Positions 15,903-52,749 of a DNA stretch of 64,000 nucleotides are shown here, piece by piece. Every line of letters begins with the position of its first letter. Position 1 is the first letter of the stretch. The notes beneath the pieces are model-generated. The model saw only the letters and a list, made by a program, of their open reading frames with translations, made no database searches and was not told the origin of the DNA. Location: the IMG/VR virus record IMGVR_UViG_3300025849_000025, positions 16,100 to 80,099 of that record; one strand, written 5' to 3'. The position numbers and the translations under genes were made by a program. The DNA comes from a virus.

Positions 15903-16361
15903 ATGGCACATAGTGGTAGATTTCGTCCAAAAAACCCCTCTAAGTACAAGGGTGACCCCACAAAGATCATTTATAGGTCTATGTGGGAGTTTAAATTCTT
16001 TAGATATGTGGATATACACCCTGATGTGATATGGTGGCAGTCGGAAGAAGTCGTAGTTCCTTACATGTCTCCTATTGACGGAAGACGCCATAGGTACTAT
16101 CCTGATGTAATTGTCAATAAAAAGATTGGTGATGGTAAGTCTGCAACTGTAATGATTGAAATTAAACCTTATGCACAAACAAGACCACCTGATAGGTCTA
16201 AGAAGAACGCTACCAAGACTGGTAGGATATCAAGGAAGTATTTGAACGAGGTTAAGACTTGGGGTATTAATGACGCTAAATGGAAAGCCGCTAGGAAATT
16301 TTGCGCACAGCGTGGGTGGCAATTTGAAATTATGACGGAAAGAGAACTAGGAATAAAATAA
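15903..16361 (+). CDS. gp4: Head completion nuclease gp4 (TnsA-like)
   Basis: GRFRPKNPSKYKGDPTKIIYRSMWE...WQSEE...HRYYPD...IEIKP...NDAKWKAA. Confidence 0.92.
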   Translation: MAHSGRFRPKNPSKYKGDPTKIIYRSMWEFKFFRYVDIHPDVIWWQSEEVVVPYMSPIDGRRHRYYPDVIVNKKIGDGKSATVMIEIKPYAQTRPPDRSKKNATKTGRISRKYLNEVKTWGINDAKWKAARKFCAQRGWQFEIMTERELGIK

Positions 16362-50586: not shown

Positions 50587-50663
50587 GCTTCCGTAGCATA
50601 ACTGGATAATGCAACCGCCTTCTAAGCGGTAGAGTATAGGTTCGAGTCCTATCGGGAGCGCCA
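50587..50663 (+). tRNA. tRNA-Arg(TCT)
   Basis: Cloverleaf; anticodon arm ACCGC-CTTCTAA-GCGGT; GGTTCGAGTCC; encoded CCA. Confidence 0.93.
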
Positions 50664-50672
50664 AAATAGAGT

Positions 50673-50749
50673 ATGGGCGTGATGGAATTGGTATACATAC
50701 AACACTTAAAATGTTGGTTTTGTGGGTTCGAGTCCCACCGCCCATACCA
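50673..50749 (+). tRNA. tRNA-Leu(TAA) with a short variable loop
   Basis: ATGGGCG/CGCCCAT acceptor; CAACA-CTTAAAA-TGTTG; A73; CCA. Confidence 0.88.
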
Positions 50750-50759
50750 AGAACAGTGT

Positions 50760-50834
50760 GCGAGAGTAGCTTAGTGGTAGAGCAAGACGCTCATAACGTC
50801 CAGGTCGTAGGTTCGATCCCTACCTCTCGCACCA
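50760..50834 (+). tRNA. tRNA with CAT anticodon (elongator Met or Ile2)
   Basis: GCGAGAG/CTCTCGC acceptor; GACG-CTCATAA-CGTC; G1-C72 paired, so not an initiator; CCA. Confidence 0.9.
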
Positions 50835-50836
50835 AG

Positions 50837-51119
50837 AACGTGTTGGGTAGCACCAACTAGTATGGGTCAGCAAATCCCATATGATGAGAAGTGACGTAGC
50901 AGTCACAACAAAAGGCTTGATGGAAGTATCTCGGCAAGTGCATGTCGTGAGTCTGGTAGGGGCGGAGCCGTTGACCACTGAGATTAAACAGTGGAAGGCA
51001 TTGAAACTCCCCAGACGCACAAATTTGAATAGGTCGGCATACCTGTTGCACGTACTCTCTATACCATCGCGTGTTAATTAAAACTGCTAAGTCCTAGTCA
51101 AGACTTGAAACTGACCGTT
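50837..51119 (+). ncRNA. Candidate large structured non-coding RNA (~280 nt)
   Basis: Higher GC than flanks; many nested stems; repeated AGCA-containing loops; long-range complements; no credible ORF. Confidence 0.6.
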
Positions 51120-51142
51120 AAGAATTTATGATTGGAAGCTTG

Positions 51143-51280
51143 ATGAATATTCACGAGAAAAAAGACCTGACAATAAAAGAACTTACAAAACTATTTTCTG
51201 ATAATGGTATCGATTATTTCATCAAATCAGTAGATGGATGCGTTGCCGCAATACATTTTATCGTGAAGCCTGATGATTAG
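51143..51280 (+). CDS. 45-aa hypothetical protein (not in ORF track)
   Basis: MNIHEKKDLTIKELTKLFSDNGIDYFIKSVDGCVAAIHFIVKPDD; overlaps the galE start. Confidence 0.45.
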   Translation: MNIHEKKDLTIKELTKLFSDNGIDYFIKSVDGCVAAIHFIVKPDD

Positions 51281-52139
51281 GGTTCTTGTAACAGGAGCTA
51301 CTGGATATGTAGGTAGCCACTTAGTTAAGCGTCTTGCTGAATATGGGCATGAGGTTCATGGTATTGACATTAACTTCCACGGTGAACACAACAATGTTGA
51401 AAAGTATTGTAGCTTTAAGCTACAGGATATTCTATTAAATATGAAGTATCGCTCAGAATATGATGCTGTTGTTCATCTTGCTGGTAGAAGTGTTGTCCCA
51501 CAAAGTTTGATTGAGCCATCTGAATACTATAGAGTAAACACGATGGGAACAAACAATCTATTCAATTACATCGACACCCCTCACTTGATTTTTGCGAGTA
51601 CGAGTTCTGCATTTGAAATGGCATCTCCATATGCACGATCTAAAGTAGCGGCTGAGGATATCATAAAGGAGAAGTCCAATGGGCATACTATTTTCCGCTT
51701 TTTTAATGTCTCTGGTTCTGATGGTATTCATAGGCAACTTGGCTCTGCCTCTCATCTTATTCGTCGTTGTGCTATGGTTGCTGCTGGAAAGCTTTCCCAC
51801 ATTGATATATTTGGCGTGGATTATCCTACTCGTGACGGTACTTGTATACGTGATTACATACATGTCAGTGATCTTTGTTCTGCTATAGTAAAAACAATTG
51901 ACACTGGCGCACTAAATACTGATTATGAGTGTTTAGGTGGTAATGTGGGTTACAGTGTTCTTGAGGTTGTGGATGCAATGAGACGTGTGACTGGCAAGAA
52001 AATCGAGACTGTAATTCAAGGTAGAAGACAAGGTGATGCAGTATCATCAGTTGTTGACAATCTGAGTAAATGTGTTACACTTACAAAGAGTTTAGAAGAT
52101 ATGTGTTTAGACCAATATAAGTTGGAACTGACACTTTAG
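51273..52139 (+). CDS. galE: UDP-glucose 4-epimerase-like NAD-dependent epimerase
   Basis: VTGATGYVG, HLAG, YARSK (YxxxK), RFFNV, DYPTRDGTCIRDYIHV, RRQGD. Confidence 0.88.
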   Translation: MIRVLVTGATGYVGSHLVKRLAEYGHEVHGIDINFHGEHNNVEKYCSFKLQDILLNMKYRSEYDAVVHLAGRSVVPQSLIEPSEYYRVNTMGTNNLFNYIDTPHLIFASTSSAFEMASPYARSKVAAEDIIKEKSNGHTIFRFFNVSGSDGIHRQLGSASHLIRRCAMVAAGKLSHIDIFGVDYPTRDGTCIRDYIHVSDLCSAIVKTIDTGALNTDYECLGGNVGYSVLEVVDAMRRVTGKKIETVIQGRRQGDAVSSVVDNLSKCVTLTKSLEDMCLDQYKLELTL

Positions 52140-52214
52140 TGGGAAGTAGCTCAATGGTAGAGCATCTGTTTTTGGTACAGAAGGTTGTAGGTTCGAGTCC
52201 TACCTTCCCAGCCA
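52140..52214 (+). tRNA. tRNA-Gln(TTG)
   Basis: TGGGAAG/CTTCCCA acceptor (U1-A72), G73; TCTGT-TTTTGGT-ACAGA; CCA. Confidence 0.88.
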
Positions 52215-52233: not shown

Positions 52234-52749
52234 GTGGCTGATGTTTTAATGTTAAATGCTGATGGTCAACCAGTCAGTTATCTACCGCTTAGTACCATTA
52301 AATGGAAAGAAGCAATCATGTACATGTGGCACGATAAGTGTACTGTATTAGATTGGTACGACGATTGGGTTGTACGATCACCATCATGGGAAACCAAAGT
52401 TCCATCTGTTATCATATTAAAAGATTATGTTCGTAAGAAAACCCAAGTACGGTTCTCTAAGAATAATGTTTATCTAAGAGACTTGTATACTTGTCTGTAC
52501 TGCGAACAACACGTCAGTCGTTCTGTAGCAACACTTGATCATGTAATACCACTTAGCTTGGGTGGTAAAACTACATGGGAAAACATTGCTACTGCGTGTA
52601 ATAAATGTAATGGTATCAAAGCAAACAAGACAAACATGAAACCAGTATATGCGCCCTATCGTCCTGGGTATTATGAGTTAGTTCGTAAGAAGAAACAGTT
52701 TGAGATTGAAGCCACACATCCTTCTTGGGAAAAGTGGTTGACAACATAA
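52234..52749 (+). CDS. HNH endonuclease (McrA-like)
   Basis: RDLYTCLYC...TLDHVIPLSLGGKTTWENIATACNKCNGIK. Confidence 0.9.
   Translation: MADVLMLNADGQPVSYLPLSTIKWKEAIMYMWHDKCTVLDWYDDWVVRSPSWETKVPSVIILKDYVRKKTQVRFSKNNVYLRDLYTCLYCEQHVSRSVATLDHVIPLSLGGKTTWENIATACNKCNGIKANKTNMKPVYAPYRPGYYELVRKKKQFEIEATHPSWEKWLTT

Follow-up and report, generated by a model that had tools for sequence, protein, structure and literature searches.

Within the window, i.e. the stretch of 64,000 nucleotides analysed here (positions 16,100 to 80,099 of the IMG/VR virus record IMGVR_UViG_3300025849_000025), the segment 50835-51021 on the + strand is probably the gene of a stable, folded noncoding RNA that acts in trans and is released by tRNA-processing enzymes (we put the probability of this reading at roughly 60%). 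A conserved fold with covariation in 26 distinct sequences bears out an earlier sequence-only reading of the locus, which had proposed a structured noncoding RNA here, and points to an RNA gene that is genuine and strongly constrained. Judged against Rfam 15, the RNA family is uncatalogued and new: the earlier reading could not match the RNA by eye to manA, wcaG, GOLLD or ROOL, and cmscan, the check that it had named, agreed, with only the four tRNAs passing the gathering score among 4227 Rfam 15 models and no model (wcaG, manA, GOLLD and ROOL included) matching inside 50835-51125 at E up to 10. The 8,495 unnamed candidate RNAs (29-151 nt) that a 2023 survey obtained from IMG/VR (PMC10690425) lie outside this comparison.

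The phage and its tRNA locus

The window belongs to an 80-kb IMG/VR virus record with a CheckV completeness of 37%, which corresponds to a genome of ~216 kb. Its genes encode a T4-type DNA polymerase, topoisomerase II subunits, a DNA helicase, baseplate proteins and an SbcC-like nuclease (from the PHROG family into which T4 gp46 falls), and the polymerase and topoisomerase are only ~43-44% identical to those of the nearest cultured phages. The phage carrying the window is an uncultured marine T4-like phage. Three related records, which are fragments, yielded no gp43.

Upstream of the RNA, three tRNA genes were found on the + strand by both ARAGORN and the Rfam tRNA model: tRNA-Arg(UCU) at 50587-50663, tRNA-Leu(UAA) at 50673-50749 and tRNA-Met(CAU) at 50760-50834. 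Downstream, also on the + strand, come a spacer (51022-51127), a small ORF (51128-51280, although alignment with relatives makes the ATG at 51143 the likely true start) and a nucleotide-sugar epimerase gene (51273-52139).

A tRNA-Gln(UUG) gene starts at 52140, the base right after the epimerase stop codon (52139), and an HNH endonuclease ORF (52234-52749) lies 20 nt past it, which recalls segB inside the T4 tRNA cluster. The spacer contains a sigma-70-like promoter match (TTGAAA-16-TATGAT, 51105-51132, 10/12) immediately upstream of the small ORF. In the window, tRNA-Leu(UAA) is 77 nt long and lacks the long variable arm of ~10 nt, which is kept by its orthologues in four related contigs (86-87 nt); being class-I-shaped with a leucine anticodon, it may be a pseudogene or a tRNA of altered identity.

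Extent and distribution of the RNA

Relatives were sought first at loci with an epimerase neighbour, and then by a conserved-word scan of IMG/VR and a metagenome collection and by a covariance-model screen. Three copies came from the epimerase-neighbour loci; they were ~90% identical over their first 133 nt and differed in the remainder. The final set held 26 distinct copies in ~45 contigs, which are uncultured marine or estuarine virus or metagenome material; contigs with recognisable neighbour genes were T4-like, and their flanking proteins were 29-89% identical to the homologues of the window phage. So far, then, the family has been seen only in uncultured marine contigs, and those with comparable flanks are large T4-like myoviruses.

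A blastn search of 50,697 cultured phage records with the element returned only chance matches (E about 1), and a scan of GTDB genomes with an 18-mer of the element gave nine chance matches, none of which fitted the model. When the 3'-domain motif GGCGGAG...GTTGAKAAC was used alone in a viral scan, none of the 118 new loci among the matches listed matched the family HMM. A tie to sugar epimerases, of the kind known from wcaG and manA, had also been suggested and was not sustained: only one clade of the family lies upstream of an epimerase gene, and model R2 found no additional family members at 74 other epimerase loci. Two close relatives (L002 and L003) are without the RNA element. The first of these (L002, 2811-2860) retains hairpin 1 alone behind its tRNA-Met (GUUGGG-UAUCAC-CCCAAC), with a better stem and a different loop, and the start region of the small ORF comes directly after it.

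Mapping of alignment columns to window coordinates placed the conserved core at 50835-51021 (187 nt, + strand), which begins directly past the CCA of tRNA-Met (ending at 50834). Covariance models R1 and R2 matched 50835-51031 at 198-210 bits, and all relatives stop shortly past the strand that pairs with the internal loop. The sequence-only reading had thus set the start correctly at the end of the tRNA CCA, but had made the RNA too long: its size, its 3' boundary and about half of its pairings were wrong because the 3' third of what it described is the window-specific spacer 51022-51127, outside the conserved RNA. This spacer was absent from all 25 relatives, had no homologue in 1.4 Mb of related loci and folded no better than shuffles (z +0.19). 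The pairings drawn into it must be given up, namely GATGG/CCATC, GTGCA/TGCAC, ATAGGT/ACCTGT and AAGTC/GACTT as well as the long-range complements TAGCAGT/ACTGCTA and GGTCAG/CTGACC. Extension in the 3' direction as far as 51140 likewise gave no homologue in the fetched loci and no unusual fold. Fold stability was slightly better than that of shuffles for the whole 291 nt (z -1.6), while for the conserved core the + strand folded better (z -2.58) than the - strand (z -1.44).

Covariation, strand and selection

The fold was evaluated on two alignments, both of which were fitted to a covariance model and so lean towards the structure of that model. A8 is a realignment of the 26 sequences with model R2; in it 96.7% of cells pair, and both sides changed in 22 of 48 pairs, as compared to 13.4 +/- 1.7 in shuffles (none of 500 reached 22, a control that does not amount to a probability) and 1-7 with the partners slid; the covariation score was 0.336, versus 0.177 for shuffled and at most 0.071 for slid versions. 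In A7, which carries the curated structure including the candidate helix S1 (described below), 97.0% of cells pair and 22 of 53 pairs changed on both sides, with 13.0 +/- 1.8 in shuffles (again 0/500 at 22) and 1-7 with slid partners. The copies fall into ~5-7 clades, so that independent lineages are few and a single compensatory change is counted in many related sequences. Plain MAFFT alignments had already shown the key compensations, namely those in hairpin 1, hairpin 2 and helix 6.

Conserved G.U pairs were found in 26/26 sequences at columns 136/185 and in 21/26 at columns 135/186, positions that would be A.C on the opposite strand. Thus, with many such conserved pairs, the folded strand is the + strand.

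The 5' half of the RNA (columns 1-121) is 78-96% identical among all copies, and the whole alignment has 83 invariant columns; the 3' domain is only 38-54% identical and keeps its shape. On contigs whose proteins are 29-50% identical to those of the window, the 5' half is still 79-88% identical. Such a comparison indicates purifying selection on the RNA that is much stronger than on the neighbouring proteins.

Architecture of the RNA

Four small hairpins, three of them with loops of the UAGCA type, are common to all copies, as are linkers rich in purines and a long 3' hairpin whose tip varies; each lies on the + strand. The RNA opens with the leader AGAACGU (50835-50841; family form AGRACGU), in which ACGU is invariant (columns 4-7). 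The leader resembles AGAACAGTGT, the spacer between tRNA-Leu and tRNA-Met, and may therefore be a processing spacer.

The three tandem hairpins with related loops that had been picked out by eye are present and conserved: hairpins 1 and 2 are supported by compensatory changes, and hairpin 3 is nearly invariant. Hairpin 1 (50842-50857; GUUGG, loop GUAGCA, CCAAC) has five pairs, 100% paired, three of which changed on both sides (G-C to U-A, U-A to C-G and G-C to A-U); in clade C it has 7 bp and the loop UUGCU. Hairpin 2 (50860-50882; GUAUGGG, loop UCAGCAAAU, CCCAUAU) has seven pairs, also 100% paired, with one compensatory pair (G-C to A-U) and the family loop UYAGCAARU. After a nearly invariant, single-stranded linker (GAUGAGAA, 50883-50890) comes hairpin 3 (50891-50906; GUGAC, loop GUAGCA, GUCAC), whose five pairs are 99% paired with none changed on both sides, and whose loop is (K)U-N-G-C-A in every clade (variants UAGCA, UUGCA and UCGCA). 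A second nearly invariant linker (AACAAAAGGCUUGAU, 50907-50921; family form AACAAAAGGCUYGAU) leads to hairpin 4 (50922-50931; GGA, loop AGUA, UCU), with three pairs, 100% paired, of which the middle one varies as G-C, C-G or A-U and the outer one as G.U, G-C or A-U.

The 3' domain (50951-51016; 41-79 nt across sequences) is one long hairpin, an architecture also recovered by folding each sequence alone. Its base is helix 6 (GUCUGG/CCAGAC, 50951-50956 with 51011-51016), a pairing that the sequence-only reading had listed and that proved to be a true helix with several compensatory versions. It continues in helix 6b, in which CUCC pairs as had been suggested, but with GGGG (50959-50962) as its partner and not with GGAG, which opens the next helix. 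In helices 6 and 6b together 6/10 pairs changed on both sides. The 3' bulge is AAA in the window and GAAA, GAGAA or GAUAA in the family when the preceding paired G is counted. Helix 7 (CGG-A-GCC with GGC-A-UUG; 2/6 pairs changed on both sides) runs in the order C-G, G.U, G.U, an A.R mismatch and then Watson-Crick pairs. At the tip of the hairpin the window has CCACUG/CAGUGG, which is real as the tip of this copy but specific to it and unrelated to the tips of other clades, though every relative has some hairpin there: clades A and B have a helix of 7 bp, and some clade C copies a stem of 2 bp capped by a GAAA loop. The base of the 3' hairpin is thus kept while its tip is swapped for unrelated hairpins, from 2 bp to 7 bp or more in length.

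Between hairpin 4 and the 3' domain lies the candidate helix S1 (CGGCA at 50932-50936 with UGUCG at 50943-50947; family 3' strand UGYCG), whose strands enclose a segment of 5-6 nt containing the 5' strand of a further helix, S2 (GUGC at 50938-50941). The 3' strand of S2 is GCAC(A) at 51017-51021, directly past helix 6, with GCAC at 51017-51020 pairing to 50938-50941. For S2, 4/5 pairs changed on both sides and 88% are paired (weakly in clade B1, with 3/5 pairs), and at least five complementary versions occur (GGUGC/GCACC, CGCAA/UUGCG, GUAA/UUAC, AUGA/UCAU and GUGU(A)/(U)ACAC). S1 is 100% pairable and invariant except for G.U to G-C, so that it has no covariation support. Were S1 to pair, S1 and S2 would make a classical H-type pseudoknot; since S1 is invariant, this is to be taken as a possible fold only. 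The pseudoknot potential that had been noted earlier may accordingly be realised at GUGC/GCAC, but not at the site proposed for it.

Several other features were considered and dropped. An encoded 3' ACCA/CCA end was given up because CACCA follows S2 in some clades and is absent in others. Other pairings are each possible in single clades only: between the leader and the 3' tail, in an acceptor-like stem, between the loops of hairpins 1 and 2 (kissing), and between the leader ACGU and the tip loop.

Genomic contexts and presence in RNA libraries

The element occurs in several settings: i) 0-1 nt after tRNA-Met, tRNA-Arg(UCU), tRNA-Trp or tRNA-Ser; ii) 23 nt after tRNA-Met in one clade; iii) ~6-11 nt before tRNA-Arg(UCU) or tRNA-Gln in some copies; iv) in nine contigs, flanked by protein genes and more than 1.5 kb from any tRNA. 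The same tRNA-Arg(UCU) stands directly before the element in L004 and L136 and after it in clade B1. What lies downstream also depends on the clade, being the small ORF and epimerase, tRNA-Arg, tRNA-Gln or unrelated ORFs, and phages with 80-89% identical proteins carry the element at another spot of the same variable region. One hydrophobic ORF precedes the element both in clade B1 and in L153 (8252-8542 in L086; ~1100-1267 in L153); in L086 it has 96 codons and its stop codon shares bases with the start of the RNA, and no homologue of it was seen beside the window's copy.

Exact contigs from four metatranscriptome runs (three studies) cover 50807-51399, 50800-51093, 50928-51138 and 50806-51056, and one RNA-library contig takes in part of tRNA-Met, all of the element and the start of the epimerase gene; as assembled contigs, these data speak of presence only and not of ends, strand or abundance, and DNA carry-over is possible. 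A clade C-like copy was found in a deeper contig of another run. The middle of the epimerase gene was not covered by contigs of the RNA runs, which in contig data carries no meaning.

Proposed maturation and action

The RNA would be transcribed from the + strand together with its neighbours, which are usually tRNA genes, and would then be cut out by the tRNA-processing machinery of the host. One end of the RNA would come from RNase P, which cuts where a following tRNA begins; the other would arise past the CCA of a preceding tRNA, by endonucleolytic cleavage and trimming. Copies without an adjacent tRNA exist, and therefore tRNA processing is not the sole route of maturation.

The 5' half, i.e. 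the four small hairpins (three with U-N-G-C-A loops) and the linkers GAUGAGAA and AACAAAAGGCUYGAU, would present the working surface for a partner in trans, most likely a protein. Antisense targets of the conserved linkers within the window were no more frequent than chance. The 3' half, a long hairpin tied to the internal loop by S2 and possibly forming the H-type pseudoknot, would be a structural clamp and give the RNA its compactness and resistance to nucleases. A bolder version, which we consider decidedly unlikely, sees in the RNA the founding member of a functional class, new to science, in the tRNA arrays of large marine phages, being either catalytic or a decoy that absorbs a host factor. 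As a decoy, its three U-N-G-C-A loops would imitate a feature of host RNA, e.g. a tRNA loop, and would soak up some RNA-binding factor, for instance a tRNA-directed defence nuclease of the host.

Alternative explanations

The main rivals to a trans-acting RNA are a cis-acting module and a ribozyme. As a cis-acting element of a polycistronic transcript, the RNA would be folded punctuation or a stabiliser that directs processing or protects the end of a neighbour, with no function in trans. The layout of the loci suits this: the genes on either side of the element always share its strand and the spacers are very short, in clade B1 the element begins on the stop codon of the preceding ORF, in several clades it ends ~20-40 nt ahead of the next start codon, and its leader (AGAACGU) is like an inter-tRNA spacer. 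On the other hand, the 83 invariant columns, the conserved loops and the specific loop-to-tail helix exceed what a barrier to nucleases needs, and the neighbours vary on both sides (tRNA or mRNA, upstream or downstream), which makes this explanation rather unlikely. A riboswitch or other cis-regulatory leader is not supported, as the element has no consistent class of downstream gene; the switch that had been entertained earlier is thus unlikely, the downstream genes differing between clades. Self-cleavage to free the RNA itself or the adjacent tRNAs from the precursor, or catalysis of a new class, would be in keeping with a compact fold of several helices (and possibly a pseudoknot), with junction nucleotides that are invariant while the peripheral stems vary, and with RNA ends that coincide with tRNA ends. 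Yet the element matched no Rfam ribozyme model even at E up to 10 (hammerhead, HDV-like, twister, pistol and hatchet among them), and the stretch UGAUGAG, inspected by eye, lacks a hammerhead core (no arrangement of stem II and GAAA), so we regard a ribozyme as improbable.

Two further readings would take the selection away from an RNA product. A structured mobile DNA element or the relic of a homing endonuclease, with a fold that matters as DNA or not at all, would account for the presence and absence of the element among close relatives (L002 and L003), for its different place in the same variable region of phages with 80-89% identical proteins and for an HNH endonuclease gene ~1.2 kb downstream. 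It is very improbable, however. The compensatory changes, together with G.U pairs that tie the fold to one strand, point to selection on an RNA fold; conservation of the 5' half greatly exceeds that of the neighbouring proteins; and an unsystematic look showed no terminal repeats or target duplications. A small protein gene is barely credible. Open frames do exist (50881-51081 on the + strand, 66 codons; 50820-51020 and 50857-51051 on the - strand), and in L005 and L006 the + frame continues into the downstream small ORF. The ATGATG frame nevertheless stops at differing positions in the L004-type, B1, L163 and L165 copies, there are one-nucleotide indels (in L165 a loop gains 1 nt), the three codon positions have 15/11/13 changes with no third-position bias, no Shine-Dalgarno motif was seen upstream of ATGATG and no PHROG match was found. 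Moreover, in helix 6 a triple change on one strand (AGA to TTG) is matched by a compensating one (CTG to AAG) on the other, and the strand-specific G.U pairs argue against selection on the - strand frames. A tRNA, tmRNA or tRNA-like identity found no support from ARAGORN, which reports nothing in 50835-51125; the sole weak match to YrlA (22 bits; gathering score 69) falls on tRNA-Leu/tRNA-Met at 50720-50783, outside the element.

Comparison with known RNAs

RNAs released by tRNA maturation may have functions of their own. In E. coli the 3' external transcribed spacer of glyW-cysT-leuZ, a by-product of tRNA maturation, is a sponge for sRNAs, and tRNA-linked hairpin RNAs of herpesviruses are released by tRNA maturation and then act in trans. 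These RNAs are short and weakly structured, or are miRNA precursors; unlike them, the element is an RNA of 170-200 nt with a multi-helix fold supported by covariation. The wcaG, manA, GOLLD and ROOL RNAs, which come from phages and marine metagenomes, are structured and without known function, and several of them are often near tRNA genes or sugar-nucleotide genes. The clade upstream of an epimerase gene gives the present family a likeness to wcaG- and manA-type motifs, and the element is much smaller than GOLLD or ROOL.

The tRNA cluster of T4 encodes two stable RNAs which have been known since the 1970s and whose function is still unknown (PMC3014915, PMC9697503). They are RNAD (species 2, rnaD, 119 nt) and RNAC (species 1, rnaC, 139 nt), and the T4 order on the tRNA strand is tRNA-Arg(UCU), rnaD and then rnaC. 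In T4 as in the window, the non-tRNA RNA gene begins 1-2 nt past the last tRNA of the cluster, which in T4 is tRNA-Arg(UCU). The element resembles them as a non-tRNA RNA gene on the same strand that abuts a tRNA of a phage tRNA cluster, and in both cases the cluster holds a homing-type endonuclease gene (segB in T4, the HNH gene here). It differs from them in that some of its copies have no tRNA nearby and in lacking the T-arm-like hairpin of T4 RNAC, and no similarity to them in sequence or structure was detected. Model R1, run with filters off on T4 68500-74500, gave a best E of 0.63 and only short fragments in rnaC and rnaD; none of the family's invariant motifs but a lone ACGU occurs in rnaC or rnaD, and the T4 RNAs are confined by blastn to T-even relatives. 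The element is hence best read as a counterpart of T4 RNAD and RNAC in layout, putatively analogous and not homologous.

An unrelated, deep-branching marine T4-like lineage would then keep a different and more elaborate RNA in a T4-like position. With its well-defined fold, candidate pseudoknot, invariant loops and natural minimal versions of ~170 nt, the family offers material for experiments, and the decoy or catalytic reading, if true, would provide a testable model for the 50-year-old puzzle of T4 RNAC and RNAD.

T4 RNAC contains GAGUAGCGU twice, and RNAD opens with the hairpin CCGG-GUCGCUA-CCGG (NC_000866 70908-71171). The RNAC repeat and the RNAD hairpin loosely recall the GUAGCA loops of the present family and tRNA positions 7-12, a resemblance that may be due to chance or may be a trace of tRNA ancestry.
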